Source: a virus
Lineage: Duplodnaviria; Heunggongvirae; Uroviricota; Caudoviricetes
IMG/VR virus record: IMGVR_UViG_3300014204_000001
Coordinates: 10,011-74,010 of that record
DNA length: 64,000 bases
Direction: 5' to 3' (one strand)
Position numbers and translations under genes: made by a program. The notes under the pieces were generated by a model that did not search any database, was not told the DNA's origin, and saw only the letters and a list, made by a program, of their open reading frames with translations. Below, piece by piece: positions 11,351 to 64,000 of the stretch; within the stretch, counting starts at the first letter, position 1, and every line of letters begins with the position of its first letter.

Positions 11351-12068
11351 GACTCCCCCGCGCAGCATCGACTCTCTGGACGATCAGGCTCTTCTGGTAG
11401 GACAGCTGACCCTGCGTGATATTGAGCTTCTTCATAAGCTCCTTGCCAGAGAGCTGCGGTTTACCCAGGTAGCCAGTGGAATACTCGAAGATCAGCTTCT
11501 GCAGTGGCGTGAGGTCGTGGTAGATGAAGTCCACCAGGTGATCTTCCGCGGTGTCGTAGTCTGGGTGTTCCTCGGACTCCACGTACTCCTTGCGCGAGGC
11601 CTGGCGCTGAAATTGATCCAGTTTCTTTTTGGACCAACCCAGGCGATCCTGGAGTTCTTCGCTGGTAGGGTCGCGACCTAGGCGATCACGCAACTCGTTG
11701 GTGCCTACATTGTAGGTGTGAAAGAGTAGCGCCTTCGTTTCGGACAGTCGCGCCGTGTTCTGCGTAGAGTAGACCATGCGCGAGAGTTTGGGTAGCCGAC
11801 TAGCCACGTACGTAGAGAGGGCTGTGCCCTGGTTGGGGTCATACGCGCGGAATGCCTCGACAGCCAAGCGTTTCGCTTCGGCCTCGAGCAGGCTGCGAGA
11901 CATAGCGCTCGCCCACTTGTTGACCTCTCGAGCGATGATGGGTTTCATCTGATCAAGCAGAGCCTGCAGATCCGAAGGATTCTGGGTACGCTTCCAGGTA
12001 CGCCAGAGCTCTGCGTCTTTCTGCTTGACGTCCAACTTTACCGCGTAAACGGGTTCCATGCGACTCAC
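11343..12068 (-). CDS. Sigma-70-family RNA polymerase sigma factor (FliA/SigF-like)
   Basis: Region 2 (AFRAYDPNQGTALSTYV), region 3 (LGRDPTSEELQDRLG), region 4 (LTPLQK...KELMKKLNITQGQLS). Confidence 0.85.
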   Translation of the reverse strand: MSRMEPVYAVKLDVKQKDAELWRTWKRTQNPSDLQALLDQMKPIIAREVNKWASAMSRSLLEAEAKRLAVEAFRAYDPNQGTALSTYVASRLPKLSRMVYSTQNTARLSETKALLFHTYNVGTNELRDRLGRDPTSEELQDRLGWSKKKLDQFQRQASRKEYVESEEHPDYDTAEDHLVDFIYHDLTPLQKLIFEYSTGYLGKPQLSGKELMKKLNITQGQLSYQKSLIVQRVDAARGSHG

Positions 12069-14761
12069 CTCTTCGGCGTATCCTTGATGATAGCCTCCCG
12101 GTACGCGAGCAGGGCTACATCCCAGTCAATCCGAGTCTGAGGGTACTCCGAGTCGAGCCCCTCCAGAACTCCAGTATACGGGATTGGCTCACCCGACGCA
12201 TCCTCGCTCACACCCGACTGGGCGCCGGCCAGGTCTGTCCCAGGACCCGGTCGCAGGCGCTTGATGCGCGTGTAGTAGGTGGCTCCACTACAAACGTCTG
12301 TGGTGTCGTAGGCATACGAATTGTTGAGTCCCTCGAGCTGTCCGCCCTCTTCGAGCTCAGCGAGCGTAGCTCCGCCATGTATGAATGAGACGTACTCTTG
12401 CAGTGTACAGATTGGCCTAGACACATACGCCATGGCCGCGTCGTAGTTCTCGAAGAGGTCTTTCGCCCCTGGGAGCGCCTCGATGTCGAAAGAATCGTTC
12501 AAGGCTTCGGCGGCCTTTGCCAGTTGCGCTGACCACGCTTGCGCATCGGCATCCGACATGCCTGCCAGAATCTTCGCGACAGTCGCTTGCGCCGTGACGG
12601 CGTACCCCTGGCTTGCTTTGTACTCATCCTCGATGATCTTGAAGTCGGCTGCGTATTTGTCCCACTCCGCCTGGGCCGCAAGGAAAGCATCGTGCACGTG
12701 GTTCAGCGCAGTTGCTTGTTCCGCAGTCTTGACGGCGTGCTGCAGGTGATTGTCGTAAACCGTGTACGCCTCGTCGTACGCAGCCTTAGCAGCGCATGCT
12801 TTTTCGTATAACTCCGAAGTGTGTGCAAAGGCCGTGTCCGCCAACGCCGCTGCATTCACAGCGTTGTTATACGCAGCCATGTTCGGGTTCGACGAGAGGC
12901 CAGCCGTGGTGTATGCAATGGGCTCAATTCGTTCGTCATCGTACCAGTGCGCCTCGTCCGGTTTAACGTAGCCCACGACGCGACGGAAGTCGAAGGCGGC
13001 GTGCTTGTTAGCCTGTATGTGCCGGCCAAAAAGAAGCGACGTATAGAATTCCTCGGCCTTCTCGAAGTCCTGGCTGATTTTGCGGATCTGCGGGATAGGA
13101 TCAGCCGGAGCGGAGGCCAGGAACTCGTTGGTGCGCAGCACGTCACTGCGCAATTGTCCAAGCATCTCTTGAAACGTCCGCCCGAAACTGTACTGGATCG
13201 CCGTGCGCATCCCATTGGTGGAGAAACTCTGCGTCACCTGAGTAACGTAGCCAACGGTGTCCATCGCGCTCGCCCGCTGGTCAAAGATCATGCAGGGAAA
13301 CCCAGGCAAGATGTATGGGTTGAACGCCATGTTGACGGCGCCACCGCGCTTCTCATAGCGCTGGCGATAGTGCTCGTACTGCACGTAAAGGTTGAACAAC
13401 TTCTGGATGCGGCCAACTTCCTGCTTCTGCACGTCCTCTGTCAGTGGTCCCTCGGAGCTTCCCGCCCCGGTACGGCTCATCAAGTAGGTGAACCAGGAGG
13501 GCACAGCGGAGCGGCTTAGGATGGGACCCTTGTAGAGCTCTTCTGGATGAACCAACATATTCTTGTTGGTGACCGTGGGTGTCGCTGCCGCCTTTGAGGA
13601 CTCAGCGCCATCGTTGTGCCGCATGATCACGCTAGCACTGGGAGGCCACGCAGCGGTCAGGGCCGCGGCCCCGAGAGTGTGCTGTAACACACCACCCACG
13701 AGTTGATCGTTGACGTAGGTTCGCGTGGGTTGTGCGAGGTAGCTCTCCGCGTAAGACAGCGACGTCATCATTGAGGGGAAGATCACATTGCATGTCGGAG
13801 GAACACCGAACAACATCTGCGGCTTTGCGAAATAGTTTACGACGCGCAGCGGTTCTTTAGCGATTTGCGAGGGTTCCGAGGGACTGGTCTGGGCGGGGCC
13901 CAGGATAGTGCCATCCCCCAGGCGCACGCGAAAACAGGGCGCTGTAGGAATCATCGCTAGTTCGAAGTAGAACCGCGACAGAAGTTCCTGGATGACTTGG
14001 AAAAGGGTGCCAGCGTTACCGATAGACGCCGCGGAGTCGCCACGAGACGAGTCCAGTGCGCTGGTGGCCTGCACTGCCTCGAGTATTGGAAATACAGCAG
14101 GTGTGCCCTCGTCCTCGAAAACGGGCAGTGCAGCAAAGCGGTTGACGAAGTTGCGCTTTCGAGCCCAGCGAGCGAAGAAGTTGACCGCGGGTAGTGTGCG
14201 CTGCTGCTCTGGGATCCCTTTGTCGAGCATGCCGCGCACGACGTTGTAAACAAGCTCGAACGGCCGTTCGATATCCTCAGCCTCGTTGTTCGGTTTTACG
14301 ATCAACCCCTTTTTGAACAGTGAGAAGGGGTAGAACACACCTGCCTGTGTGATACCGTTGACGCCGGCATTATGCACCACCGCCTCGGTGACCGCGTCCA
14401 CGGTATTCATGAAGAAGTAGTAGAGTTGCGTCCAGATCGCGACATCAGCGAGGGCGTTGAAGCTCATCTGCCGTCCGCTCGGCGAATTGGTGTAGCTCCA
14501 GCCAACGATCTCCCCTTCGAAGCAGAGCTTCCAGGTGGGGTCGTCTGGATCTGCGAGCGTGTCTAGGTAGAACACCACGACTTCGATACGGTCCTCGTTG
14601 CCCAGTCGTTGCAAAAGCCTGTGCGGGGCGAACGAGAGCGTAGCTTCGGGGATGGTCCATACGCCGTAGCTAATTGAGACCGAGGGGCATGGAACCTCAA
14701 TGCCGTTTAGATAAACCAGCCATGCACCTTGGTGGGGATCCGAATGAGTGTAGTCCGTCAC
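12065..14761 (-). CDS. Large tail/baseplate hub-like protein
   Basis: 898 aa; YLNGIEVPCPSVSISYG N-terminus; position in the baseplate operon. Confidence 0.55.
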   Translation of the reverse strand: MTDYTHSDPHQGAWLVYLNGIEVPCPSVSISYGVWTIPEATLSFAPHRLLQRLGNEDRIEVVVFYLDTLADPDDPTWKLCFEGEIVGWSYTNSPSGRQMSFNALADVAIWTQLYYFFMNTVDAVTEAVVHNAGVNGITQAGVFYPFSLFKKGLIVKPNNEAEDIERPFELVYNVVRGMLDKGIPEQQRTLPAVNFFARWARKRNFVNRFAALPVFEDEGTPAVFPILEAVQATSALDSSRGDSAASIGNAGTLFQVIQELLSRFYFELAMIPTAPCFRVRLGDGTILGPAQTSPSEPSQIAKEPLRVVNYFAKPQMLFGVPPTCNVIFPSMMTSLSYAESYLAQPTRTYVNDQLVGGVLQHTLGAAALTAAWPPSASVIMRHNDGAESSKAAATPTVTNKNMLVHPEELYKGPILSRSAVPSWFTYLMSRTGAGSSEGPLTEDVQKQEVGRIQKLFNLYVQYEHYRQRYEKRGGAVNMAFNPYILPGFPCMIFDQRASAMDTVGYVTQVTQSFSTNGMRTAIQYSFGRTFQEMLGQLRSDVLRTNEFLASAPADPIPQIRKISQDFEKAEEFYTSLLFGRHIQANKHAAFDFRRVVGYVKPDEAHWYDDERIEPIAYTTAGLSSNPNMAAYNNAVNAAALADTAFAHTSELYEKACAAKAAYDEAYTVYDNHLQHAVKTAEQATALNHVHDAFLAAQAEWDKYAADFKIIEDEYKASQGYAVTAQATVAKILAGMSDADAQAWSAQLAKAAEALNDSFDIEALPGAKDLFENYDAAMAYVSRPICTLQEYVSFIHGGATLAELEEGGQLEGLNNSYAYDTTDVCSGATYYTRIKRLRPGPGTDLAGAQSGVSEDASGEPIPYTGVLEGLDSEYPQTRIDWDVALLAYREAIIKDTPKR

Positions 14762-15405
14762 GCTTGAGCCTCATCGTCCAGGAGCAGAGCCGCAACGAGA
14801 ATGAGCATAGCGCACATAGCTGAGATGCGGTGGTTAAACGAGGTACTCATTAGGCGTGCTTCAAGGAGGTCCTTGTAGGCCTCGGGTATCCGTAAGTCTT
14901 GCAGCTCGCGGAATACCTGCGGGTAGCGCATCGTGAGGACCCGGAGTTCTCGGTCTATCGCAGTAGCCCGCACCTTACCCGAGACGGTACCGATGCTGCT
15001 TTCGGCAGCGTCCAGCAGCTGGACGAACACCGACTTGAGCTCGGTCGAGTAGGCGAAACCCAGAACGGTTCGTGCCTGGATCGTGATGTCGGGTGAAGTG
15101 TTGACCGACTGTAGAGTACGCTGACGGCACTCCTCGAGCGCGGGATAGGGGAAGGGGCGGCAAAGACGTAACTCGGCGGGAAGCCTACTGAGCACGGTGC
15201 CGTACACCTTGTTGACGAGCGCGCCATACCCTATGAAGTCTGCAACGGCAAAACTTTGAAGCTGCGCATAACCGAAGCCTTCGAGTTCAACCGTGATGCC
15301 GCGAATGTACCCCGTCAGCGCTGACGCAGCCGCTTCGGCTTCCGCCAAACCACTGACTTCTACAGGCGACCAGGGGGCGCCGTTGAATGTAGTGGTCTCA
15401 GCCAT
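14758..15405 (-). CDS. Hypothetical protein (structural module)
   Basis: 215 aa, overlap-coupled to both neighbours. Confidence 0.7.
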   Translation of the reverse strand: MAETTTFNGAPWSPVEVSGLAEAEAAASALTGYIRGITVELEGFGYAQLQSFAVADFIGYGALVNKVYGTVLSRLPAELRLCRPFPYPALEECRQRTLQSVNTSPDITIQARTVLGFAYSTELKSVFVQLLDAAESSIGTVSGKVRATAIDRELRVLTMRYPQVFRELQDLRIPEAYKDLLEARLMSTSFNHRISAMCAMLILVAALLLDDEAQA

Positions 15406-16019
15406 TAGATTGCGTTCCCACTTAGATCAACGATGTTCTGAATCGTCAACTCATAAGGCTGATTCGGTACCTGGAAGCCCGTAGTGAGCTCGACGGAGGT
15501 GTCCGATGTACGACTAGCCGCCGTCACTTCGAGACCTGCGATCAGATAGTTCCCTGGTGTGAGCGCACCATCAGGATCTACGGTCATCTTGACAGGCTCT
15601 GAAAACGTGACGAGGACTCGCATGCGCGAGAGTGCAACGACGCTCTGAATTACCGGCTTATCTGTTTCGCCGCCGCTAATGAAGGAGACATAGGGGAGCA
15701 GTTCGTCATTTTGAACGACTTTCACGACGCCCACGTATGCGTCGCAACCTGCTACGGCGACCGCGTATGTCAGCGGGCCAGACTGATCAGTCACACCTGC
15801 CGGGACCGTCAAGGAGTACTTGCCTTGGTTTACGAAGGCACCCTCGGTTACTTCGTCCCACATCTCCGTGGTGATGGTCAAGGCGCTGACACCGCCGTCG
15901 GCCTTTTCAATGCTGCATGTGATCTGGCTGAATCCGATATTGACTTTGGGTAGCTTGGTCGCAGTATCGAACAAGCGCACGGGAAGACGCACGCTCATGT
16001 TGCGCTTGACTTCGATCAT
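15405..16019 (-). CDS. Virion accessory protein with C-terminal Ig-like domain
   Basis: VTFSEPV...GNY...V.LTT.......YELTIQNIVDLSGN pattern; paralogous to 19411..20028. Confidence 0.7.
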   Translation of the reverse strand: MIEVKRNMSVRLPVRLFDTATKLPKVNIGFSQITCSIEKADGGVSALTITTEMWDEVTEGAFVNQGKYSLTVPAGVTDQSGPLTYAVAVAGCDAYVGVVKVVQNDELLPYVSFISGGETDKPVIQSVVALSRMRVLVTFSEPVKMTVDPDGALTPGNYLIAGLEVTAASRTSDTSVELTTGFQVPNQPYELTIQNIVDLSGNAI

Positions 16020-16021
16020 GG

Positions 16022-16891
16022 CTAGTTGAACCCCCTGTGGAAGGCATCGCTGATGCCGCGCGGGCTTGCGCTGGATGCGCTACTCGCATTCGTGAGCCTG
16101 AAGATAGACGACGATAGCGGGGCGGCCGGGATGACTCGGTTGCAGACAGCTAGGGGCGCGTAGGAGACGTAATACTCCGCGATCTCCTGGGCAGTGCGCG
16201 CCACGCTGCTAATACGCACGTCTGACAAACAGAAACTCAAAGGATCGCTGTAGCTCGCGGTGTTAGGAGCATGCCCAAAGAACATGGGGCATGTCTGGAA
16301 GCCTTTGTCGTTATGATTCCAAGGCGTCCGCTCGGTGGATTGGTTGACGAAGACCCCGTCTATATACCAAGAGGCCGTACATCTATAGGCGGAGCCGTTC
16401 CAGTAGGCTGCGGTCCGGGTCACAGCGAGATAGTGCCAGGCCTGGTCGTAGTTGTTCAGTTCGGTTGTGCAGTCGAATACTTCAGACTGCGCGGTGTTGT
16501 ACTGCCAGCGGAAAGAGGGCTTGAGCTGGTTGCTGCCGAACGTGAGGTGCAAGGGTGAGTTGTATTCTAGCACTCCTGTCTGATAGAGCGGGATCCCCAG
16601 CAGCATGGTTACGCCCGCGTAATCCTTAGAATCTAGTATGCGCAGCCATAGCTCCACTGTCAGAGCGCCGGCTACCGCCTCGGTCCAACCACTGGGCATA
16701 TTCCCTGACGCTAGCGAGTTATTGACTGTAATCGGTAGCACGTCTCGGCGCTCGGGACTTGCCCCCAGGAGCATCGCGGGAGAATCTCCTACGAGCGCCA
16801 CGCCGCCGGGGGCCAGATCGCGTAGGTGAGACGGCGAAGCGTCATCGAGAGGCCACAGCGAGACTGTTCCGGCATCGGCATCGTGCATCAC
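16022..16891 (-). CDS. LamG / concanavalin A-like domain protein
   Basis: LWPLDD, LTVELW, WHYLAVT, WYIDG, LSDVRISSVARTAQEI motifs. Confidence 0.8.
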   Translation of the reverse strand: MMHDADAGTVSLWPLDDASPSHLRDLAPGGVALVGDSPAMLLGASPERRDVLPITVNNSLASGNMPSGWTEAVAGALTVELWLRILDSKDYAGVTMLLGIPLYQTGVLEYNSPLHLTFGSNQLKPSFRWQYNTAQSEVFDCTTELNNYDQAWHYLAVTRTAAYWNGSAYRCTASWYIDGVFVNQSTERTPWNHNDKGFQTCPMFFGHAPNTASYSDPLSFCLSDVRISSVARTAQEIAEYYVSYAPLAVCNRVIPAAPLSSSIFRLTNASSASSASPRGISDAFHRGFN

Positions 16892-18972
16892 ATCGGCCCC
16901 ATCTGTAATAGTCGAACGTCGTTGGAGCGGTCCTTTAGATACGGGCTGAACGTCAAGTAGTTGCCATCGGGCAGTGCCTCAGCGACGTTTACCGTGGCTC
17001 GCGGGTTGGCAGTGGTGACGCCCCGCAATTCGCCTACACAACCGTAGGTCGCTAGGAAGGGAGTGTACTGCATCAGCTGTAGCGGAGAGAGCAGTGCGGA
17101 ACTGCGCCACTCCAGCATCGAGGTTATGCGGTCGCCGTTGGGCGGGTAGCTTCCCGAAAAAAGCGGATAGGCCTTGTAGGAGTCGGCAATGCCGTCGGCT
17201 GCGTATCCCTTAGGGCTCCGCAGACAGAGGAAGTCCATGCTCTCGTTGCCGATGACGGCCCCGGCTATGTCTTGGCCGAGGTAGGCACCGGCGGGATAGT
17301 TGGCGTTGACGGACTCCGCTTTGAAGGAATGGGCACCCAAGATCTCGGTGATACGGAGCGTCTCCCCGCCACCGCGTGCGAGGGCCTGCGCACGCCAGGC
17401 GGGCTGGACTTGCGCCGTCGAATCGAAGATCTCGATGCAGTCGCCCTGGACCAGCTTGCCAGTGATGTCCTCCTGCGTGGTGATCGTGACAGCCTTGCCC
17501 GAGACTAGGGGCACGGCAAGTGTGAACCTGTCAGTTTTCAGGTAGGAGTTGTAGAAACCCGCATACACAAACGATGTGATGCTTTTCGTACCGGCGGCAG
17601 GCCACCAGGTGGCTATTAACTTGACGTGCCCTGCATCGGCTACCGCGGCGAACGAAAGACTCGCGGACGAGGCCGGCAAACGTAGACTTCCTGCTTGCTC
17701 AAATTGAGGCATCGCTATCGTGTTATAATAGCTTCCTGGCCACACGCTAGATGGGGCCCGCCAGTTGGGGGGCATGACGGCAGTGCTCCACGCTTCTGTA
17801 TCCAGATCGAATATGTGGAAGTGCGTGAATGCGAGGCTGTTTGTGTTGGACCCGTGTGCGAAGCAGATGCTACCGCGAGCACCCAGCGATGGATCGAAGT
17901 AAAACTGACGGGGGTTTCCTGTATTAGTGCCGGCCGGAACTGCCGGCAGCGCAGCTGTCGGACCTGTCTCCCAGACATTGTCAGTGACCCCGTAACGGGC
18001 CCATTGGGTATTCGAAGCCGCATTGACGTAATCGCAGGTATAGATATAGTCCTGCGCGAATCCCGTGAGAGCTGCGGGCAAATACAGCATCTTGGCTATT
18101 GCTACGGTGTGAGCTGCAGTCATTGTCCAAGCACCTAAGCTGGGCATGGCCGCTAGAGATTCCCAACTATTCGAGCTAATGCGGTACCGAGCAAAGGCCG
18201 ATCCGGCCGCGTCGCTCTTTGCCATGTAGATCAGGTCGTCGCCGTCCCAAGAATGAAGTGCTGTGACGCTGGGCTTATACGCTCCCCATGGCGGATCTGC
18301 TCGGTACTCCGTCAGATTTTCCAGCACGTCATAGCGCTGCCAACACTGTCCTGCCGTGGCTAAATTAGGGCCCCACAGATACTCTTTGCCGGAAGCCCGG
18401 TCTATTGTGTGAACGAGCGTGGGATACGGGTAATTCGAAACGGTGCCGATGCTGACAGCGTTTCGAAAGGTAGGTTCGTATGCGTTGATAGAGGCAGCGT
18501 ATCGAGAGAAGAACGTGCGACCGTTGTAGGCCACATTGGAACTACCGTAGGCCTGCCAACTGGTGGACCACTGTGCGGCCGTGTGCGGGTACAGATCGTA
18601 CTGCCAGTTAGTGCTCGGGGACCAGTAGGCGTCGGCGGTCGCGTACATAGCGTGGGCGGGTCCATAGTACACGCGATTCTTTCGGCCCACCTCCCCATAG
18701 CCCGTGTGGGCTACGGCATTCCATGAGCGGTAAAGTCGAAAAGTCAGGTTGTCAAAGGCGGTCTCGGGGGCTATTCCGGGTGTATCACCCATGAGCGAGG
18801 ACGTGAGCCGCAGGTACACCGGGACTTTCGTATCGCCGTCGCTGAAAAGGAACACCTGGTCTGTGGCTGAGATAGCATCAACCAGAGTCCAACCCGAAAC
18901 CGTCGGCAGCCAGGCTGCGAGTTGGCCGAGCATATTGGCAGGAGAACTGGCAGCGGCGGTCAAAGAAGCCAT
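16888..18972 (-). CDS. Kelch/beta-propeller-containing virion accessory protein
   Basis: Repeats WQRYDVLEN.TE, FARYRISSNSWESLAAMP, WARYGVTDNVWET, FDLDTEAWS. Confidence 0.7.
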   Translation of the reverse strand: MASLTAAASSPANMLGQLAAWLPTVSGWTLVDAISATDQVFLFSDGDTKVPVYLRLTSSLMGDTPGIAPETAFDNLTFRLYRSWNAVAHTGYGEVGRKNRVYYGPAHAMYATADAYWSPSTNWQYDLYPHTAAQWSTSWQAYGSSNVAYNGRTFFSRYAASINAYEPTFRNAVSIGTVSNYPYPTLVHTIDRASGKEYLWGPNLATAGQCWQRYDVLENLTEYRADPPWGAYKPSVTALHSWDGDDLIYMAKSDAAGSAFARYRISSNSWESLAAMPSLGAWTMTAAHTVAIAKMLYLPAALTGFAQDYIYTCDYVNAASNTQWARYGVTDNVWETGPTAALPAVPAGTNTGNPRQFYFDPSLGARGSICFAHGSNTNSLAFTHFHIFDLDTEAWSTAVMPPNWRAPSSVWPGSYYNTIAMPQFEQAGSLRLPASSASLSFAAVADAGHVKLIATWWPAAGTKSITSFVYAGFYNSYLKTDRFTLAVPLVSGKAVTITTQEDITGKLVQGDCIEIFDSTAQVQPAWRAQALARGGGETLRITEILGAHSFKAESVNANYPAGAYLGQDIAGAVIGNESMDFLCLRSPKGYAADGIADSYKAYPLFSGSYPPNGDRITSMLEWRSSALLSPLQLMQYTPFLATYGCVGELRGVTTANPRATVNVAEALPDGNYLTFSPYLKDRSNDVRLLQMGPM

Positions 18973-18984
18973 GAGTTATTTCCT

Positions 18985-19401
18985 CTAGTTGAGCCTGACA
19001 GTGAGGGCGCCAGCGGAGAACCGCAACATATCACCCGCAATAACCGTGCGCGGAGCATCCAACGCCGCGGCGAAGAGCAGATTGCCGTTACTAGAGGCGT
19101 CGAGGATACCGAAGTGCGTGAGGGGCCCCGCCCAGTCAGCAGTGGCCCCAGGAAATTCGAGGACAGCTGACGTCGTGATCTGCGTACCCTGCGCATCTAC
19201 CACGGGCACAGCCCACGAAGCCTGCGCTACTACCACTCGAGCATAACCGAGGCTGTTGATGCTTGTGAGCTCATTCGCGCTTACCTCGGGATCACCCGTG
19301 TATAGTGCGAGGTAAGTGTTAATAGGAGCGGACAGAGCGTTGCCGCGAAAGAGAGCAGAGAGGATAGCACTCTCAAGGTATCGGCTAAAAGAAGCGGCCA
19401 T
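18985..19401 (-). CDS. Minor tail / tail-fibre-associated protein
   Basis: SRYLE.AIL...FRG......YLALYTGDP...GYARV...FP.AT..W...THFGILDA..GN.LF pattern seen in phage tail proteins. Confidence 0.7.
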   Translation of the reverse strand: MAASFSRYLESAILSALFRGNALSAPINTYLALYTGDPEVSANELTSINSLGYARVVVAQASWAVPVVDAQGTQITTSAVLEFPGATADWAGPLTHFGILDASSNGNLLFAAALDAPRTVIAGDMLRFSAGALTVRLN

Positions 19402-19410
19402 GTGCTAACC

Positions 19411-20028
19411 TCATTGCTGCTGTGTAATCGGGTTTCCGTCGAGGTCCTCGACGTTGAAGACGGTGAGAGTATAGCGCATCTGGGGCGTCTGTGCGAGCGT
19501 GGTGATGCACACCTGGTCGTCTGCTACCCTTTGAACGCTTAAAAGCGTGAGGCTGTCTACAACGTAGTTCGCAAGTCTCAGCGCACCATTTAGATCTGAG
19601 GTCATGATCACTGGCTCAGAGTATGTGATGTTGATCTGATTCCTGGTGGGCGCCGAGACACTCTGGATAACAGGACACACCGTTTCGCCGCCACCTGTGA
19701 ACTGTACGTACGGTGGGGTGGCGGCCAAGTTGAGCTCGGCAATATCCTGCTGTGTGGCTACTTCGAGCGCATCTTCGGCCCGGGAGTCATAGGTCCCGTA
19801 ACGAGGGTACGAGCCCGCGCCAAAATCCAAAATACCTACGTAGTGCGCCTCGGGCACCGTGGCGCGGGGAATTCGATACAGGCCGCCACCGATTTCTACG
19901 CAGGCGACCACAGGGGGTACCGCACCCGTAGTCACTTCGAAAAAGTTTTTCCAGGTGGGTACGATGCCTGCTAGAGGCTCATTGTTTACGTCGTAAATCG
20001 TAATGATGTAATCCGAATTACTAGCCAT
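19411..20028 (-). CDS. Virion accessory protein with C-terminal Ig-like domain
   Basis: C-terminal about 95 aa paralogous to 15405..16019. Confidence 0.7.
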   Translation of the reverse strand: MASNSDYIITIYDVNNEPLAGIVPTWKNFFEVTTGAVPPVVACVEIGGGLYRIPRATVPEAHYVGILDFGAGSYPRYGTYDSRAEDALEVATQQDIAELNLAATPPYVQFTGGGETVCPVIQSVSAPTRNQINITYSEPVIMTSDLNGALRLANYVVDSLTLLSVQRVADDQVCITTLAQTPQMRYTLTVFNVEDLDGNPITQQQ

Positions 20029-21036: not shown

Positions 21037-21240
21037 TCACCTCGTCAACAGCAAAGGAGTTTGAACTTCTTCTTCGGTGACCGCGACCATGCCCTCTTCG
21101 GCAACGATCATCTTGGCACGCCGGCGCAGGCTGGGAAGAGTGAGCTCGGCTGCTTGCCCACGCCGGTAGTTTCGAAGGATGGTTTCGTTGGCCAACGTGA
21201 GCATGTTGATCGATGTCGGGATAATAAGTTTGGTAGTCAC
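21037..21240 (-). CDS. Small hypothetical protein
   Basis: 67 aa, ATGA overlap with the tape-measure stop. Confidence 0.6.
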   Translation of the reverse strand: MTTKLIIPTSINMLTLANETILRNYRRGQAAELTLPSLRRRAKMIVAEEGMVAVTEEEVQTPLLLTR

Positions 21241-24200
21241 GAGCCCATACCTCCTTGACCGGGTGGTAGAGATGGACCGTCGTTGCTGAGCCGTTGGACG
21301 ATGAGCTCGGACGCCCGTTTGAAGGTATCGACGGCACCCGGAAAACTCTTGAGGGCGTCACCGCGCGTAGCCGAGATACCAGCCTGGGCGGTATTTGCCT
21401 TGCTTTCGTTGCGCCCGTCTAGGGTGCCTCCAAACATGGAGTCTGCACCACTGCCCTGCCCCGCGGCATAGTTGTCGAACTCTGCAGCGATCTGGTTCTT
21501 CTCGCCCTTGGTCTTCGCTCGCTTGTACTGCTTCGCCAGTTCCTTGACTTTTTCGGGTGCGTCGGCGAGCTTCGAGTCGTCGAGCTCGAGAATTTTCGCT
21601 GAGCCAGTTGCCCCGACTTCCGCCAGGCTGGAGTTCTTGGCAAAGATCTTCTGAAGACCCTTGGCGTAGGCCCCGCTCTTTTTCGAAACGAGCCAATTGT
21701 TCGTCGTCTTGGTCATCGTGGCCTTCTGCGCTTTCGCAGAGCCCTTGGATGCGAGTTGTCCGCCGAGCTGCCCCGCTACCTCGAGAAGACCCTCGGCGTC
21801 TAGTTTATTGCGTAGTTCGTAGCCCACCGTCTCGATGGCACCAGCCTCACGCTCCGGGAGATCAGCAAGATACCGCCCGATCCCATCGACATCGCCCTTC
21901 GCTGCGAGTACTGCCACCGCCGCTGCGTCAGGGCTGTACTCGGACAACATATCCATTGCGCGCTTACGCTTCATTTTCTCGCCGGATGCCCAGAAAGCAT
22001 TCGACTTGCCGAAGGCCTCGGTCAGTGTGCTGTCCTGGTCATTCGTGGCCTTGTTGATGCGGTCGGTCACGCTCTGCACATCTTGCACGTCGGATAGTTT
22101 GAAGCCGGAGCCTGTCGCGGTCTTCACTGCCGCCTCGGCCATTTGCGCAGAAGCCTTGCCGAAGGCTCCCGCGTGGGCAGTGTCGATGCCCTCGCGCTCG
22201 AGTGCTTGGCCAGCGATCCCCTTGAGGCCGTGCATCGAGGTATCGTCGCCTATGAGGTTGTTGTTGCCTTTCGCTTGCTCGACGAGCCCCCGACTGATGT
22301 CGGCCTTGACGCGCCCCACCTTCTCACGCACGCGCGCTTTTTCAGTATCCGAGAGCTTGTCATAATCGGGGGCGATGGCGCGGTAAAGCTGTGCGTCTAG
22401 CGATGCTTTACCCTCGGCAGAGAGTCCGAGGCCTTCGCTGAGAGTGTGCCCGGTGTTTCGAAAATCCGAGGCCTCGGCTTTCTCAGAGTCGGTCAGTGAT
22501 CCAGTGCGGCCCAGGCGCTCAAAGAACTCGCTCTCAAAAATACGCCCGCCTTGGGCATGTCTCAGTTGTGACAAACTCATGCTCGCGCCGTCACGGCCAA
22601 AGAGACTGAAGTTCGAGATGGCGCCCCCGGCGCCCCGCGCGCTGATGCGGTCTTGCTGTGCCTGGAACGTTTCGTGGCCCATGGCGTACATCGCGCGTTC
22701 CTGCTCTGGCGACGTAGCGACCAACGAGAGCGGTGTGCGCACGACGGCTTGTCCCATATCGCGCGCCGCAGAGTTTTCGCTCAGCTGTGTGAAGAAGTTG
22801 CCCGCGTCCTCCATACTCTGTCGGAAACCGGTGCCGAAGTTCCCGGCGCCGTGGTAGAGCCCTGACAGGACGCCACCGCCGCGTGCGTTGCGTTCCACGA
22901 TGCCGCGCTCCCCCTCCCGATAGTTCTGCAGTGCGGAGGAGCGTCCATTAAAGCGGTCGACCTCAACTTGCCTACTAAGTCCGCTGTAAAAGCTCGGGTT
23001 GCTCGCCTCTTGGGCAACGCGCATGGCTTCTTTGGGATCCTTGCCCATCGCGATGGCCGCCGTAACGAAGTCTTGCGGCGAGTTTCCGAGGCCCATGAAC
23101 CGCTGAGTGTTACGGATCATCTTGATGTCTTGCACCTTCAGGCCGATAGGTCCGAGCTCACGCCCCACGGCATCCTGAAGGAGATTCTCCTGTGCTGCGA
23201 ACACGCCAAGCGCGCCGACGCCACCCTTGTTCACGGCGTTCAGGAGGTTCGTGGCGCCCATGGTGGTCATCTGGTGGATGTCGAAGTTGCCGGCACGCAT
23301 GCCCCCCATGGCTGAGCCGTTGAGCCCGAAGGTGCCCCCTCCGCCGAACGAGGACATAGCCGCAGCCATCATGGGGTTCTTCAGCGTGGCAGCCTGGTTC
23401 ATCATCTCCCGTTGGGCAATGCCTTGAACGCCGCCGTACATCGCGAGCTGTTGCGGGGTGTAGGTGCCCGCAGCGACAGCCTGGCGAGCCATGCCCATGG
23501 CCCCCATGCCAACGTTAAGGCCAAGGCCAGCTGTAAGACCCTGGCCTTGGAAAGTAGCTGCTCCAGCGAGCCCCGCCTCCATGATCCCCTTCACGCTGGT
23601 GCCCGCCATGCGTGCGTACATTCGGGCGTTCTGGACGATGTTGCCCATCTCCGACAGCGAGAGCCCCATCTGGTTCATCTGACCAAGCTGGCGGACAGCT
23701 TCCTGAACATCAGGCTCGCCAGCGACCTGCATCAGCATGCGGACCGACTTGGCGATGCTCTTCATGCGGCCTGCGATCTGCTCAGACCCCTGCGTCATGT
23801 CCAGCAGACCCTGCTCCCCCGCCATGTGAGTCATGCGGGTGAGGTCCTGCACATTGAACTGGTTCCCCGTCTGTCGCCGGAAATTCGAGTCCCAGCCAGT
23901 ATCCTCGAGGCGACGCGCGAGATGCCGTGAGCCCCCACTGCTGAGACCCCGCCCATCTAGAGATAGCTCGGAGCCGCCAACTACGAACTCCGGCGTAATC
24001 CCGCGCATCTGCGCCGTACGCAGGGCCATGGTGCGGAGCGGGTTGATGTCGTCGAGCATGTGTTGCGCTGTGCGCCCGAGTCCCCCCATCTCCGAGAGCG
24101 CGAGCCCACCAGCGGCCCCAAGGATACCGCCCATCCGAGCACCACCAACACCTGCGAGGCGCGCACCGAGGTTGGCACCAAGCCCAGCGCCGCCCAATGC

Positions 24201-24848
24201 GAAGCCAGCATCCACGCCGCCACGTCCCGCCACACCCGGCGCTGCCATGAAGCCCGCCTCGTACTGCATGGATCGCTGCTGGCTGATCTGCCAGTTGTAG
24301 TCGAAGGGGGTCGAGAAGTGTGGAGTCACTGGCCGCGGCGTCCAGGGCATCGGGGCGAGTGGCATCTGCGGCGTTGGCGGGATCGCTGGCATGGGCCCTT
24401 GCGGGAAGGGTCGGAAGATACCCATGTTTGGCGAGGTCATGTGAATCGGTGAAGGGAGCATGCCCGAGCTGAAGCCCTGCATGCCACCCATTCCCGCCAT
24501 CGTCTGCGCAACGTAGGGGTTGAACATCTGGGAGTTCATCGACGTCATGTTCTGCTGGTACATGCGCGCATAGGCGCCCACGCTACCCACAGGCGAGCCG
24601 AAGGGCCCCGTGGGCGTCCCGAACATGCCGCCGCCCATAGACGGAAACCCGCCCATAGAGCTTGGACGGGTCATCATCGCCGACTGGAGGGTTTGGAACG
24701 ATGCCGTCTGCGTCTGCTGGGAGGCGTCCTGGGAGACTTCGCCAGGGTGGCGCACGTGAGGCGCGGGGGTGGGAATCCCGAACGACGAATTCCCTGACCC
24801 GTACAGTCCCAGTTGAGCCTGCATCACGTTGAAACTGTCGTCAGCCAT
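21237..24848 (-). CDS. Tape measure protein
   Basis: 1203 aa, Gly/Ala/Met-rich helical, downstream of the chaperone pair and upstream of the baseplate genes. Confidence 0.8.
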   Translation of the reverse strand: MADDSFNVMQAQLGLYGSGNSSFGIPTPAPHVRHPGEVSQDASQQTQTASFQTLQSAMMTRPSSMGGFPSMGGGMFGTPTGPFGSPVGSVGAYARMYQQNMTSMNSQMFNPYVAQTMAGMGGMQGFSSGMLPSPIHMTSPNMGIFRPFPQGPMPAIPPTPQMPLAPMPWTPRPVTPHFSTPFDYNWQISQQRSMQYEAGFMAAPGVAGRGGVDAGFALGGAGLGANLGARLAGVGGARMGGILGAAGGLALSEMGGLGRTAQHMLDDINPLRTMALRTAQMRGITPEFVVGGSELSLDGRGLSSGGSRHLARRLEDTGWDSNFRRQTGNQFNVQDLTRMTHMAGEQGLLDMTQGSEQIAGRMKSIAKSVRMLMQVAGEPDVQEAVRQLGQMNQMGLSLSEMGNIVQNARMYARMAGTSVKGIMEAGLAGAATFQGQGLTAGLGLNVGMGAMGMARQAVAAGTYTPQQLAMYGGVQGIAQREMMNQAATLKNPMMAAAMSSFGGGGTFGLNGSAMGGMRAGNFDIHQMTTMGATNLLNAVNKGGVGALGVFAAQENLLQDAVGRELGPIGLKVQDIKMIRNTQRFMGLGNSPQDFVTAAIAMGKDPKEAMRVAQEASNPSFYSGLSRQVEVDRFNGRSSALQNYREGERGIVERNARGGGVLSGLYHGAGNFGTGFRQSMEDAGNFFTQLSENSAARDMGQAVVRTPLSLVATSPEQERAMYAMGHETFQAQQDRISARGAGGAISNFSLFGRDGASMSLSQLRHAQGGRIFESEFFERLGRTGSLTDSEKAEASDFRNTGHTLSEGLGLSAEGKASLDAQLYRAIAPDYDKLSDTEKARVREKVGRVKADISRGLVEQAKGNNNLIGDDTSMHGLKGIAGQALEREGIDTAHAGAFGKASAQMAEAAVKTATGSGFKLSDVQDVQSVTDRINKATNDQDSTLTEAFGKSNAFWASGEKMKRKRAMDMLSEYSPDAAAVAVLAAKGDVDGIGRYLADLPEREAGAIETVGYELRNKLDAEGLLEVAGQLGGQLASKGSAKAQKATMTKTTNNWLVSKKSGAYAKGLQKIFAKNSSLAEVGATGSAKILELDDSKLADAPEKVKELAKQYKRAKTKGEKNQIAAEFDNYAAGQGSGADSMFGGTLDGRNESKANTAQAGISATRGDALKSFPGAVDTFKRASELIVQRLSNDGPSLPPGQGGMGS

Positions 24849-28547: not shown

Positions 28548-28559
28548 CCGGGAAGGGTG

Positions 28560-36865: not shown

Positions 36866-36866
36866 C

Positions 36867-49155: not shown

Positions 49156-49216
49156 TGCTGCGCTCCTTGATGCCCGGATCACCGGGCGGGTTGTTACGGC
49201 CTTTACGCCGTAAAGT

Positions 49217-52346: not shown

Positions 52347-52367
52347 CGATCTTGGTAACTTCTTGCT

Positions 52368-52661
52368 TTACGCCGTAATGAACCACCGAAGCAGACTAGC
52401 TGCTTTCATCTGCTGGTTCTTGAAGGCTCCAAGACGTGGGTCCGCAGAGAGGTCCATCGATTGCAGGTAATCCGCACGTAGGTTGGTTTGCTGCTGCGGC
52501 GTCAAGCCTGGAAGACCTTTGGCGATATTGGCTCCAAGGCCTCCAGAGTGGAGCTTTCGGGCCAGCGCTGCGCGCTCGCTGTTGACGTTGAGGCCGAAGG
52601 TCGCGGCTGCCGCTCGAGAGCCTGCGGCGCGGGCCAGTGTGGGTGCAAGAGGTAGAGGCAT
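52368..52661 (-). CDS. Isolated Ala/Leu-rich protein, possibly a late gene
   Basis: ATG 52661 preceded closely by CTATACT; own terminator. Confidence 0.65.
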   Translation of the reverse strand: MPLPLAPTLARAAGSRAAAATFGLNVNSERAALARKLHSGGLGANIAKGLPGLTPQQQTNLRADYLQSMDLSADPRLGAFKNQQMKAASLLRWFITA

Positions 52662-54414: not shown

Positions 54415-54621
54415 TTGAGATCGTTGAATTTGACACAGAAATCCCGTCCCGTCCGGCGAGGAGATGCAATTGTGCAGCAAGGTGACTTCGTCCGTCGCAG
54501 CGAATCCTGGGACACGCAGGACGCGGTAATGGGCTGGGCGTGGACTGACGAAGCCCTAGACGTCAAGACGAACCTGCGTCGTTGCAAGGTTTTACCACGT
54601 AAAGAAAGGCGCTGTGCATGA
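54415..54621 (+). CDS. Small hypothetical protein
   Basis: Fills the gap, ATGA overlap with the next gene; start uncertain. Confidence 0.5.
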   Translation: MRSLNLTQKSRPVRRGDAIVQQGDFVRRSESWDTQDAVMGWAWTDEALDVKTNLRRCKVLPRKERRCA

Positions 54622-61890: not shown

Positions 61891-63957
61891 CTACACGGCC
61901 CACGCTGTTTTAGTAATCTCAGCGGCGAAGATTGCGTCGTAGTAGTCGCTGCGCGGGTCTACCCAGCTTTTAAGGCTTCTGGCATCCGAGAGCTCTGTTT
62001 TATTGTGTGCGCGGCAGAGCGGGCGGGGTTCACCGCGCCTAGCCCGTGCCAAGAATTGCTCCTTCTTGGCTGCTGAGTAACCTACCAAACTCCACTGGGG
62101 CGCTATGGCATATAGTTCGGCCTTGAAGGCGGGGTATCTATCCATCAGGTCTCGCCAAGTGCGCCATAGTTTCGTGCCGTATTTTGGCTTCGGCGCGCCG
62201 CTACGCGCACGCAGTAGCAATTCTTCCATGCGCTCTGTAGGCTTTCCACGGCGGGCCCAACTAGGCTGCAAACTAATTATGGCCGCCTCAAACAGCGCGT
62301 CTGCAGCCATGTAATGATAGAGTGCCTTGCATAGCCTTTTGCTGGTAGGTTTAGTCCCCTTACGCGCACACTCGAGAAGATCGGCCTTAATCATCTCCTT
62401 TGTCACTCGTTGCTGCCATACCCAAGACGGACGCAGCAGACCGAGCTCCGCTGTGAAGTGAGCGTCGTAACCACTCGAACTAGGGTTGGTATAGTGAGGC
62501 AGCGCAAACCCTAGCGGTGTATGGCATGCTGGACGAGCATCGCCTCTTCGCGCCATCTCGAGCAACAACTTCTTCCGCTGTGTAGGGAGCCTTCCGCCGT
62601 TAGTGGATCCCTTCACGACTGCCGCTTGTACTGCCCGCTTCAGTGCTTCGACGTCCGGCCCCATGATGATTACGGGGAGTTCACCGCCGCCGCCACCTCC
62701 TTCGCCGCCAGCTTCGCGCTCGCGGATGTTGTCCATGACGGCGCGCAGCATCTCGTCTTGATCTTCGAGGGCCTTGAGCACGTCGAGGACGGGGCGAAAC
62801 CGCGCCCGCTCCGTGGCGTCTTCGTAGGTCTCACCAGCGCCCAAATCGCGGAACAGCGGAATGAAGATGTAGCAGCAATCCTTCTTCGAACCCGCGGGGA
62901 TGCGCATTCCGCGCCCGGCAGCCTGGACGATGTCGACGAGAGACTTCTTCGGGGAGAGGAACGCCACCATGTCCACCGCGGGGACATCAACGCCTTCGGT
63001 GAGGCATCGGGCATTGGACATGACAGCCGCGTCAGCACGCTTGAACATGTTCATTTCTGCGTCGCGAGTACTGGTGGGCATCATGCCGTTGACGTGGTGG
63101 TGGGACACCTTCCCGTCGAATACAGAGAACTTGTCTTCCGCGAACTCGCGGGCGTCGGCGACGGTGCGGTGGAACGTGAAGATCTTCTTGATACCGAGCT
63201 TGTCGATGGCCTTCTGGAGGGCGACCTGCACAGCGGCGTGGTTGTCAGTATCGACGGCCTCGGTGATCTCCGAGATAACGAGTTCGTAGCGGCAGATAAT
63301 CCCTTGGTCCACCGCCTTGCGGAACGAAAGCTTGTGGAACACTGGTCCGTAGACTGCTTCGTTGTCCATGGAATAAACGACTTCGTCTTCGCTGCCTTCC
63401 TTGGTGCCCACCTTCACCACGCGCGGAGTCGCGGTGAAGAACAGGCGCTTTGCACAGCGCACGTTCTCGTCGTGCAGGGCAAAGCCGAAGGCTTTGTCTT
63501 TGACGCCCGAGGTCTTGTGCGCTTCGTCGAACAGTGCAAGGTCGAAGCTCAGTCCCGCCAGCAGTGGCGCCGAGTGGTAGGTGCAGAAGACCACGCGGAC
63601 GCCCCGCTTACGCAGGAACACGGGAACGTCTGCAGGGTTGGTGGTCACAGGGCAGCCAACTTCGCTGACGTCTACGTGGATGGAATCCGTCTCCGCCACG
63701 GAGTCGTCTGAGCAGACTGCGAGTGCCGACCAGCGCCCCCAGGACGCGTTGAGACGGTACTCACCGAGGAGCTGACGAATCAGCGCCAACGAGGGCGCCA
63801 GGACAAGGATCTTCTGCGCCTTAGACTGCTCAGCGGCCCAGAGGCCGACGAGGGTCTTGCCTGTGCCGCAGGCCATCAGGACCTGGCCGCAGGTGTGCTG
63901 CTTCAATCCTTCGCAGATGTCGGCAAGAGCGTCAATCTGGTGCTGACGAGGCTTCAT
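61891..63957 (-). CDS. SF2 (DEAH/Res-like) helicase with C-terminal repeats
   Basis: MACGTGKT, FDEAH, FTATP, RCLTEGVDVP, DIVQAAGRGMR. Confidence 0.92.
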   Translation of the reverse strand: MKPRQHQIDALADICEGLKQHTCGQVLMACGTGKTLVGLWAAEQSKAQKILVLAPSLALIRQLLGEYRLNASWGRWSALAVCSDDSVAETDSIHVDVSEVGCPVTTNPADVPVFLRKRGVRVVFCTYHSAPLLAGLSFDLALFDEAHKTSGVKDKAFGFALHDENVRCAKRLFFTATPRVVKVGTKEGSEDEVVYSMDNEAVYGPVFHKLSFRKAVDQGIICRYELVISEITEAVDTDNHAAVQVALQKAIDKLGIKKIFTFHRTVADAREFAEDKFSVFDGKVSHHHVNGMMPTSTRDAEMNMFKRADAAVMSNARCLTEGVDVPAVDMVAFLSPKKSLVDIVQAAGRGMRIPAGSKKDCCYIFIPLFRDLGAGETYEDATERARFRPVLDVLKALEDQDEMLRAVMDNIREREAGGEGGGGGGELPVIIMGPDVEALKRAVQAAVVKGSTNGGRLPTQRKKLLLEMARRGDARPACHTPLGFALPHYTNPSSSGYDAHFTAELGLLRPSWVWQQRVTKEMIKADLLECARKGTKPTSKRLCKALYHYMAADALFEAAIISLQPSWARRGKPTERMEELLLRARSGAPKPKYGTKLWRTWRDLMDRYPAFKAELYAIAPQWSLVGYSAAKKEQFLARARRGEPRPLCRAHNKTELSDARSLKSWVDPRSDYYDAIFAAEITKTAWAV

Positions 63958-64000
63958 AGGATTTACTCCGTAAAAGAGTTTGTAGGCTTCCTTCCTGATA

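Follow-up and report, generated by a model that had tools for sequence, protein, structure and literature searches.

An evenly spaced, genome-wide array of 13-bp palindromes in a large phage and a ParB-family protein as its candidate binder

Dispersed palindromes and ParB-family clamps

So far, ParB-CTPase clamps have been described in the partition of chromosomes and plasmids, in Noc and in KorB, a plasmid regulator. Noc, a cellular protein that controls the division site, binds many palindromic NBS sites, which are scattered over the Bacillus subtilis chromosome. In temperate phages, the repressors of L5 and Bxb1 recognise stoperators, asymmetric sites whose orientation follows transcription. 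The KorB operator OB is a 13-bp palindrome, TTTAGCGGCTAAA (PMC11790492). Twelve OB sites are distributed over ~60 kb, and their sequence and position are conserved between RK2 and R751 (PMC13768133).

The Cluster O mycobacteriophages carry a 17-bp dyad, TGTTCGG-N3-CCGAACA. More than 30 copies are spread genome-wide, all of them invariant apart from a variable centre of 3 bp (Cresawn et al. 2015, PMC4351075). Many of these lie in or at the edges of genes and most are off promoters; the phages encode a protein with a ParB-like domain and show no sign of lysogeny (PMC4351075). The authors, who also discussed mycobacteriophage stoperators, predicted a dimeric binder with a role other than transcription initiation. 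Binder and function were left open, the ParB-like protein being weighed for genome stability only and judged unlikely (PMC4351075). A site array served by a ParB clamp is thus far known from plasmids and hardly described for viruses.

The site array and its conservation

Within the 64,000-nt stretch of phage DNA that was analysed (the window), the 13-mer TTTAC-N3-GTAAA occurs eight times, against 0.03 expected and a maximum of 1 in dinucleotide-preserving shuffles. Perfect and one-mismatch copies together number 11, against 0.48 expected. All eight perfect copies listed in a sequence-only reading of this DNA are present, its one-mismatch copies at 35518, 41752 and 52367 are real, and GATTTACTnCGTAAAA is, as it had noted, common to 25860 and 63960. 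The copies are given below together with their counterparts in the related genome G003 (median protein identity 58%) and the contig L002.

5365-5377: core copy GTTACGCAGTAAT, TTAC-N3-GTAA intact, the twelfth copy in the window; its minus-strand TAA is the stop codon of gene 5366-5860; position also occupied in G003, where the ortholog's 3' end is 5 nt away
12037-12049: perfect copy TTTACCGCGTAAA, 16 nt into a 238-aa sigma-like gene (11343-12059, minus strand), counted from its 5' end; retained in G003 at ortholog position +10 despite differing N-terminal residues
19985-19997: perfect copy TTTACGTCGTAAA, located at +37 in gene 19411-20028 (minus strand), where it reads I-Y-D-V-N; same offset in G003 (+37), and at +31 in L002
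25862-25874: perfect copy TTTACTGCGTAAA, at the divergent junction between gene 25238-25828 (minus strand) and gene 25886 with helicase 26124 (plus strand); a copy is also present at this junction in L002 (8944) and G003 (98687)
28636-28648: perfect copy TTTACCTCGTAAA, ~80 nt into ORF 28557-29033, with the XRE gene 132 nt upstream of it; L002 has a copy 136 nt downstream of its own XRE gene
35518-35530: one-mismatch copy TTTACGGAGTAAC, filling the spacer between tRNA-Gln (35441-35514) and tRNA-Thr (35531-35603)
39345-39357: perfect copy TTTACGAGGTAAA, in a convergent junction, where gene 39303-39602 (minus strand) has its 3' end 48 nt away; retained in G003 with changed surrounding codons (V-L-P-R-K versus T-L-R-R-K)
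41752-41764: one-mismatch copy TTTACTGCGTAAC, within gene 41568-43034 (minus strand)
49202-49214: perfect copy TTTACGCCGTAAA, between genes that both run on the minus strand, followed after 53 nt by the start at 49155; same junction occupied in G003 (63965)
52367-52379: one-mismatch copy TTTACGCCGTAAT, whose TAA is the stop codon of gene 52368-52661 (minus strand)
54591-54603: perfect copy TTTACCACGTAAA, followed after 14 nt by the ATG at 54618
63962-63974: perfect copy TTTACTCCGTAAA, followed after 4 nt by the start of the SF2 helicase gene (61891-63957, minus strand)

Read on the minus strand, the 63962 copy provides GGAG at the Shine-Dalgarno position, made up of its middle bases plus the one that follows.

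The whole 179-kb genome (G000) of this uncultured phage holds 21 perfect 13-mers and 31 cores (TTAC-N3-GTAA), the latter representing 30 distinct sites because the contig ends repeat. This enrichment survives a codon-preserving null that keeps both proteins and codon usage and yields 0.21 13-mers (maximum 2) and 0.89 cores (maximum 4). Among all 1024 possible 5-3-5 palindromes, TTTAC-N3-GTAAA ranks first, with 21 copies versus 7 for the runner-up. A genome-wide scan of spacings from N0 to N8 revealed enrichment at N3 only, and the reversed arm arrangement has zero occurrences in the whole genome. The site is a short perfect 13-bp palindrome of fixed geometry and invariant arms, with the consensus TTTAC-[G>C,T]-N-[C>G,A]-GTAAA. 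Flanking bases show neither information content nor asymmetry, and there is no orientation bias. As a motif class, the proposed genome-wide dyad of the type bound by a dimeric DNA-binding protein is supported.

The sites are over-dispersed. In G000 the mean gap is 6.0 kb, the minimum 2224 nt and the coefficient of variation 0.45 (P<5e-5 versus random placement). Over-dispersion recurs in G003 and G006 (coefficients of variation 0.39 and 0.49, both P<=2e-4 versus random placement) and in G007 (0.68, P=0.007). Among the genomes in the range of 6-14 cores, evenness is not significant in G001, G002 and G005, and G004 gives a weak hint only.

With respect to genes, 68-74% of the sites in G000 and G003 are intergenic or within 50 nt of a gene end, a preference explained by coding constraint, since TAA appears in one of the motif's frames. 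Deep intragenic sites make up 51-64% in the relatives G006 and G007, and two sites fall within the 5.8-kb polymerase gene. Most sites lie outside promoters. The earlier suggestion that copies sit near gene starts thus holds in the window, where seven of the eight are within ~80 nt of one, but is not general, given the deep intragenic sites of the two relatives. Several sites are found at divergent junctions, at convergent junctions or directly upstream of ribosome-binding sites. Some adjoin a GGTATAAG promoter, for instance at G000:102663, 2 nt upstream of GGGTATAAG.

Site arrays are present in at least 10 related phage contigs, with 14 sites in G004, 43 in G006 and 39 in G007. About 20 of the 30 sites have the same position in G003, where all 14 mappable intragenic sites hold their place. 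Between G000 and G003 the arms are constant, and the middle bases and flanking amino acids vary. The arms are under nucleotide-level selection. In distant relatives individual positions turn over, and density and evenness persist, a pattern that fits a coverage function. Of the two roles offered by the sequence-only reading, a genome-organising site is closer to the evidence (even spacing, intragenic sites, arm conservation) than a promoter-linked operator.

An orphan ParB-family protein as candidate binder

The genome encodes a ParB-family protein outside the window:

G000:156331-157332: ParB-family protein of 333 aa, in which the N-terminal CTPase fold of ParB is joined by a ParB-type HTH domain

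The domain matches are strong (ParB_N 1.1e-18, HTH_ParB 3.8e-17), and the best solved relatives are Caulobacter ParB (7e-26), Noc (structures 7ng0 and 6y93), Spo0J and KorB (2e-18). The nucleotide motifs GYRRYNAA and IENLHREDM align to GERRWRAA and IENVQRADL of Caulobacter ParB; with both the GxxRxxA box and the ENLQRED-type box conserved, CTP binding is predicted. A perfect site lies downstream of the parB stop codon, at 37 nt in G000 and 46 nt in G003.

ParB orthologs are encoded by every motif-bearing complete genome, and G010, which gave no ParB_N match, has no site. As orthologs also occur in G008 and G009, where sites are absent or few, presence and absence alone cannot discriminate between candidates. 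The ParB of G008 has an altered recognition helix (VNQYL), its (T/G)HAR motif is without the Arg, and this genome has zero sites. Recognition-helix type co-occurs with the core (10 of 12 versus 7 of 68), a contingency inflated because nine of the 12 loci come from the same clade. The closer relatives G001, G002, G004 and G005 retain the same helix type, yet have 6-14 cores only.

Outside the clade, three ParBs carry the [VI]SQ helix; the core is clear for G019 only, one case being ambiguous and one having none. G019 is a parA-parB-integrase element, and the repeat GGTGATTACGSCGTAATCA occurs around its parAB in three perfect copies and a one-mismatch fourth, the first extending to ...CACC. One copy is 19 nt upstream of parA. 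The repeat includes the core TTAC-GSC-GTAA, as in the phage, and the two ParBs have the same recognition helix. ParABS systems, G019 included, further resemble the phage in the ParB CTPase fold and HTH and in a palindromic site adjoining parB. They differ in having ParA and a few sites clustered near parAB, whereas the phage has no ParA and ~30 sites evenly over 179 kb. Searches returned no AAA_31 or CbiA match in G000 and no AAA_31 match in G001, G002, G003, G006 and G007 (control G019, 5e-31), and no tyrosine integrase was found in the phage. Since ParA and integrase are both missing, the array is not the partition centromere of a plasmid prophage.

We favour with moderate confidence the reading that the sites serve, in the manner of KorB and OB, to load an orphan ParB clamp of the phage, which would cover the genome. 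A ParB dimer would recognise the 13-bp dyad, as KorB does on plasmid RK2 and as ParB and Noc do on their sites, and with CTP it would become a closed clamp that slides off across a few kilobases. Given sliding over such a distance, ~30 loading sites 4-6 kb apart would suffice for ParB to reach or coat the whole phage chromosome. The role of the array would then be genome-wide: control of transcription over long distances, or else the marking, compaction or organisation of phage DNA. The phage ParB as the binder, its sliding and the effect of coating are all three what we infer.

The likeness to KorB and OB extends to several levels. The preferred phage form, TTTACGSCGTAAA, has the outer TTTA...TAAA in common with OB. 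In both systems the sites number about one in 5 kb and extend across the entire replicon, near and far from promoters; site sequence and position are conserved between diverged relatives in both; and KorB and the phage candidate both combine a ParB CTPase fold with an HTH. However, the replicon here is no plasmid but a large RNA-polymerase-encoding phage without an integrase; it lacks a ParA or IncC partner, and a KorA-like clamp-locking partner was not identified. Further, the inner four arm bases are CG/CG in the phage and GC/GC in OB, many phage sites are intragenic, and binding in the phage is predicted. Evenness is marked in the phage; no statement on the evenness of OB spacing was found.

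With Noc, the phage shares an orphan ParB paralog without ParA and many scattered palindromes, and its clamp is predicted to be CTP-dependent, as that of Noc is. Noc sites are far sparser, and Noc has an N-terminal membrane-targeting helix, whereas the phage N-terminus is acidic and variable, with no such helix by eye. The Cluster O phages have another dyad sequence and belong to another lineage, but they too carry more than 30 dispersed dyads with a 3-bp variable centre, many of them intragenic, and encode a ParB-like protein. The 5-3-5 geometry, the inner AC-N3-GT, the many dispersed copies and a possible organising role recall matS/MatP. This parallel, drawn in the sequence-only reading, breaks down at the outer arm bases, which are GTG in matS and TTT in the phage (TTTAC/GTAAA versus GTGAC), and at the protein, no MatP domain being encoded by the phage at E<=0.1.

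Rival readings and significance

Operators of another dimeric DNA-binding protein of the phage, for instance a core protein without annotation or a small factor of HTH or RHH type that would act as a global repressor or stoperator-like roadblock, form the alternative that survives best, although we consider it unlikely. A perfect dyad suits a dimeric binder, and several sites are at divergent junctions, upstream of ribosome-binding sites or beside a promoter. Most of the proteome has no Pfam or PHROG match, and an unannotated core protein could be the true binder. The candidates at hand, however, fail on distribution. The XRE protein (28264-28503), put forward earlier as the binder, is undetectable by tblastn and Pfam HTH_3 in G004, G006 and G007, which have 14, 43 and 39 sites, and was found only in G003, G001, G002 and G005. 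The repeat-HTH protein (34030-34680), the other protein suggested, was found only in G003 and G005, which is also where the HTH_23 protein was found, and a Crp-like HTH is present in G000 only. The deep intragenic placement of 51-64% of the G006 and G007 sites also speaks against promoter-linked operators, for which evenness would be unexpected. Stoperators resemble the array in that a phage genome carries them by the dozen, identical, 13 bp long and away from promoters, but the sites described here are palindromic, with no orientation bias or flank asymmetry, and no tyrosine integrase was found.

It is improbable that the sites are recognised by a DNA-acting enzyme, such as a nicking or homing-type endonuclease or a base modifier, which would nick or mark the DNA at even intervals. 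Dimeric nucleases typically recognise interrupted palindromes of this kind, and HNH, LAGLIDADG, RuvC and PD-(D/E)XK domains occur in the proteome. However, none of the enzymes could be linked to the motif, and the phage nick sites known to us are asymmetric. Phage ParB-like proteins can activate thymine dioxygenases, but the dioxygenase-associated ParBs are without a DNA-binding domain (PMC13229309), whereas the phage ParB has a full HTH.

We give very little weight to a transcription signal, which might serve the phage RNA polymerase as promoter or bidirectional terminator, or might be a hairpin or processing site in the RNA where genes meet. The boundary preference in G000 and G003, the sites at convergent junctions and upstream of ribosome-binding sites and the one in the tRNA-tRNA spacer would suit such a signal. 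Yet a perfect palindrome without flank asymmetry can give no direction, and the G006 and G007 sites are mostly deep intragenic, with two sites inside the polymerase gene. Further, the RNA stem is marginal (about -0.2 kcal/mol) and goes unused in four of five minimum-energy folds, and the one-mismatch variants show no G-U wobble bias.

Binding by a host protein such as a LexA-type repressor is equally improbable: the core is identical to the Bdellovibrio LexA box (TTAC-N3-GTAA) and the phage encodes no LexA DNA-binding domain of its own, but the array persists across phages that come from many metagenomes and range over 50-62% G+C, whose hosts therefore probably differ, and 30-40 even sites, many of them deep intragenic, are unlike an SOS regulon.

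Should the sites indeed load a ParB clamp, a partner-less ParB with a dense, even array in an apparently virulent phage would extend the clamp switch to viral chromosome biology. It would also suggest an explanation for dispersed phage palindromes that have lacked one since at least 2015 (Cluster O, PMC4351075). From the even spacing, a sliding range of about half the inter-site distance, or 2-3 kb, is predicted; KorB reaches promoters up to 1.5 kb away (PMC11790492). A bolder version, offered only tentatively, is that a virulent RNA-polymerase-encoding phage coats its entire chromosome by an orphan ParB-CTP clamp loaded at ~30 even sites. The phage would thereby organise its chromosome through a system derived from a partition protein, a strategy that may be widespread in large phages. 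Such a coat would mark phage DNA as self, could compact it or segregate it into a condensate serving as a replication and transcription compartment, or could shield it against host or phage nucleases. Selection would then target coverage, that is density and evenness, rather than individual sites.

For annotation, it should be noted that conserved rare codons and stop codons in these genomes can be set by a DNA signal. The sites make use of TTA, which accounts for 2% of Leu codons, and GTA, which accounts for 16% of Val codons.

Abundance and spacing of the palindrome

The sequence-only reading had described TTTAC-N3-GTAAA as a genome-wide palindrome, an observation that is confirmed and extended here. 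All eight perfect copies in the window are exactly where that reading had placed them, compared with 0.03 expected and never more than one in dinucleotide-preserving shuffles. Its three one-mismatch copies are real as well, the window total with up to one mismatch being 11 against 0.48 expected. In the whole virus record, of which the window is bases 10011-74010 (IMGVR_UViG_3300014204_000001, here G000; 179,282 bp), the exact 13-mer occurs 21 times and its 11-base core, TTAC-N3-GTAA, 31 times; the 31 cores amount to 30 distinct sites, one being duplicated in the repeat at the contig ends. Among the 1024 possible 5-3-5 palindromes the 13-mer ranks first, with 21 copies versus seven for the runner-up. 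Other spacings of the arms (0 to 8 bases) are not enriched in G000, and the reversed arrangement GTAAA-Nx-TTTAC has zero occurrences there. The reading had allowed that a codon-aware null could abolish the signal. The enrichment persists when synonymous codons are shuffled with every protein and the codon usage kept, as 300 such trials gave 0.21 13-mers (maximum 2) and 0.89 cores (maximum 4). The flanks of the sites carry no information except a weak preference for S adjoining the arms. The first middle base is more often G than C or T and rarely A, a bias that makes TTTACG-N-CGTAAA the preferred form.

The sites are far more evenly spread than random points in G000, in its nearest complete relative G003 and in the more distant relatives G006 and G007, the results for G000 and G003 not being independent of each other.

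Spacing of core copies in four related virus genomes
Genome; cores; mean gap; coefficient of variation; smallest gap; P versus random points
G000; 30; 5972 bp; 0.45; 2224 bp; P<5e-5
G003; 28; 6938 bp; 0.39; 2235 bp; P<=5e-5
G006 (179 kb); 43; 4164 bp; 0.49; 906 bp; P<2e-4
G007 (144 kb); 39; 3689 bp; 0.68; 240 bp; P=0.007

Retention of the array among related viruses

Related contigs and whole related virus records were reached through homologs of a 1203-aa window protein (21237-24848), which belongs to no Pfam or PHROG family and has metagenomic homologs. Among deposited phages, no close relative was found by megablast or by tblastn with this protein, and tblastn with the helicase or ParB returned distant matches only (<40% identity). 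The matches included no cultured model, and kinship with Salmonella phage Arash was not confirmed.

G003 (194 kb) shares 145 of 250 genes with G000 at a median protein identity of 58%; it too has 21 copies of the exact 13-mer, and its cores number 28. Some 20 of the 30 sites of G000 have a counterpart at the corresponding position in G003, among them every one of the 14 intragenic sites mappable through protein alignments. In the codon alignments of G000 and G003, the ten arm bases are constant, and variation is seen in the three bases between the arms and in adjoining amino acids (L-Y-A-V-N versus V-Y-V-V-K, L-Y-Q-V-K versus L-Y-F-V-K, D-L-R-G-K versus T-L-L-G-K). The codons used at the sites are rare ones, TTA accounting for 2% of leucine codons and GTA for 16% of valine codons. 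The motif is thus conserved at synonymous positions, where the sequence-only reading had looked for a possible failure.

At greater distance, only one or two of the intragenic positions of G000 are retained in G006 and G007. Density and evenness persist while individual positions turn over, so it is the array, not the single position, that is conserved over long distances. This conserved density and evenness argue for a function in which the whole chromosome has to be covered. Similar densities were found in four incomplete contigs, with 7 sites over 36 kb, 27 over 95 kb, 16 over 86 kb and 20 over 88 kb; the controls had none. Four further relatives (G001, G002, G004, G005) have 6-14 cores versus 1-2 expected, in a spacing that is not clearly even. 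G009 has five sites versus two in its control, and G008 and G010 have zero.

A proposed ParB clamp and other candidate binders

A screen of the whole predicted G000 proteome against Pfam and the proposals of the sequence-only reading yielded four candidate binders.

G000:156331-157332 (outside the window): orphan ParB, 333 aa
Window 28264-28503: XRE protein
Window 34030-34680: HTH_23 repeat-HTH protein, 216 aa
G000:97582-97959 (outside the window): Crp-like protein, 125 aa, comprising little beyond a Crp-type winged HTH (HTH_Crp_2, 1.5e-15)

With moderate confidence, we read the palindromes as the sites at which the orphan ParB of the phage loads as a clamp, similar to the operators (OB) of KorB and spaced for whole-genome reach. 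Judged by its domains (ParB_N, 1e-18; HTH_ParB, 4e-17), the protein is a canonical ParB. Among proteins of solved structure it comes closest to Caulobacter ParB (7e-26), Noc, Spo0J and KorB (2e-18), and its GxxRxxA (GYRRYNAA) and IENLHRED boxes are intact. Each of the nine relatives G001 to G009 has an ortholog, and G010, which has no site, gave no ParB_N match. Neither ParA nor a tyrosine integrase was found in the phage and five relatives, a control element being strongly positive for both. A perfect site lies 3' of the parB stop codon, at 37 nt in G000 and 46 nt in G003, and separates parB from a convergent gene for a sigma factor, to which it provides the stop codon.

The recognition helix of the ParB HTH reads [VI]SQ[YH] in every motif-bearing genome. 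In G008, which lacks sites, it reads VNQYL, and the (T/G)HAR motif after it lacks its arginine. Among 80 ParB loci from viral contigs, the core was present in the fetched locus for 10 of 12 with a [VI]SQ helix versus 7 of 68 others, a count that is weak alone because nine of the twelve belong to the clade of G000. Seven related fragments (G011-G017) carry arrays, and since the parB region falls outside them they have no bearing on co-occurrence. In G008 and G009, which have ParB and no array, a search over arm lengths of 4-6 bases and gaps of 0-8 bases revealed no substitute palindrome; either their ParB uses another type of site or the system is decaying.

Outside the clade, the unrelated 104-kb record IMGVR_UViG_2933279956_000001 (G019; 69% G+C) encodes parA, parB, a primase-polymerase and an integrase. 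Its parAB region (8800-19500) contains three perfect copies of GGTGATTACGSCGTAATCA (the first extended to ...CACC) and a one-mismatch fourth, and a further core copy lies elsewhere in the record. These sites contain a TTAC-GSC-GTAA core in common with the phage array. One copy precedes the parA start by 19 nt, where a partition site classically lies. G019 probably represents a plasmid-prophage partition system, and its site has its core in common with that of the phage. Two other out-of-clade ParBs with a [VI]SQ helix were ambiguous or negative for the core.

The closest precedent is KorB of plasmid RK2, a ParB-family CTPase that, once loaded at OB, closes as a clamp and by sliding reaches promoters as far as 1.5 kb away (PMC11790492). 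The OB core, TTTAGCGGCTAAA, is also a 13-bp palindrome (PMC11790492), and has the outer TTTA...TAAA and the central S in common with the phage site. RK2 carries twelve OB sites over ~60 kb, and the distant plasmid R751 retains them both in sequence and in position (PMC13768133). The phage array resembles this system in type of site, density and positional conservation. However, no ParA or IncC partner and no KorA-like partner was found in the phage, its sites are often intragenic and evenly spaced, and the replicon is an apparently virulent phage instead of a plasmid. By analogy, the putative ParB clamp would load at the spaced palindromes and so reach the whole genome. We infer ParB binding, sliding and biological purpose alike; the last could be to control transcription at long range, or to mark, compact or protect phage DNA. 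For the dispersed palindromes of Cluster O mycobacteriophages, the authors of PMC4351075 predicted a dimeric binder and a role other than transcription initiation, which they left unexplained. The ParB-like proteins by which phages activate thymine dioxygenases have no DNA-binding domain and represent a different case (PMC13229309). The literature searched contained no paper linking an orphan phage ParB to a genome-wide array of sites.

The main rival, that another phage-encoded dimeric DNA-binding protein occupies the sites, is unlikely. The XRE protein, proposed by the sequence-only reading, was found only in G000's relatives G003, G001, G002 and G005, and was undetectable by tblastn and Pfam HTH_3 in G004, G006 and G007, which have 14, 43 and 39 sites. 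Among the relatives, G003 and G005 alone have the repeat-HTH protein, the other proposal. The Crp-like gene has a one-mismatch palindrome copy 190 nt upstream of it; its protein is confined to G000, and none of the five relatives tested has it, G003 with its 21 perfect sites among them. The comparison with MatP sites falls away, the phage encoding no MatP domain.

Still less probable are sites for an enzyme, the binding of a host factor, and signals in transcription or RNA. A profile search of the proteome found no LexA DNA-binding domain; the Bdellovibrio LexA box is reportedly TTACNNNGTAA. As promoters or terminators the sites are disfavoured because a perfect palindrome without flanking asymmetry gives no direction, and in the richest genomes they are mostly intragenic (51% of sites deep intragenic in G006, 64% in G007). 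A link to the GGTATAAG octamer, a putative promoter, was rejected: of its 14 copies in G000 only one is directly beside a site and two more are within ~320 nt of one, and only one of the 21 perfect sites has an octamer within 300 nt. An RNA hairpin was rejected as unstable, the stem contributing about -0.2 kcal/mol and four of five minimum-energy folds making no use of it; variants with one mismatch are not biased towards G-U, and they deviate mostly at the outermost arm base.

Gene edges and neighbouring features

Our own gene calls bear out the sequence-only reading in that a start codon lies no more than about 80 nt from seven of the eight window copies. Over G000 the distribution is different, about two thirds of the sites being at gene edges of all types; the preference for edges amounts to 74% observed versus 24% for random positions. 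They lie immediately 5' of ribosome-binding sites, 16-37 nt into the 5' ends of genes, or at convergent and divergent junctions. The motif supplies the stop codon of five genes because one of its reading frames contains TAA. Eight sites are deep intragenic, two of them within a 5.8-kb polymerase gene. The preference for gene edges needs no explanation beyond coding constraint, the word being A+T-rich with an in-frame stop and the genome 57.5% G+C.

Features associated with sites or their surroundings
G000:82-94 and 179241-179253: contig-end site, a GTTACCGCGTAAA copy with identical flanks at both ends
Window 11343-12059: first sigma-like gene, 238 aa, Sigma70 region 3; site 16 nt into its 5' end
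Window 35441-35603: tRNA-Gln and tRNA-Thr; a one-mismatch palindrome copy takes up their 16-nt spacer almost exactly
Window 36506-36866: tmRNA gene, tag ANDNINVFARQLAVA
Window 43038-46817: SNF2-type helicase, 1259 aa, with a DUF5661 segment
G000:151550-153616: second SNF2 helicase, 688 aa, adjoining a divergent junction that bears a site
G000:157371-157982 (outside the window): second sigma-like gene, 203 aa, regions 2 and 4; convergent with parB, its stop being the TAA of the site

The repeated contig ends indicate that the record was circularly assembled or is terminally repeated. The contig-end site lies in a gene, where it reads G-Y-R-V-N, and of ten genomes compared, six (G000, G002, G003, G004, G006, G007) keep its full core there. 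The site that adjoins the second sigma gene is, in G002, G004 and G005, instead at or upstream of that gene's 5' end. A batch Pfam screen covering the tRNA and tmRNA region returned RtcB (4e-109), the HAD domain of a polynucleotide kinase-phosphatase and a cyclic-phosphate receiver domain, a combination that suggests an RNA-repair module.
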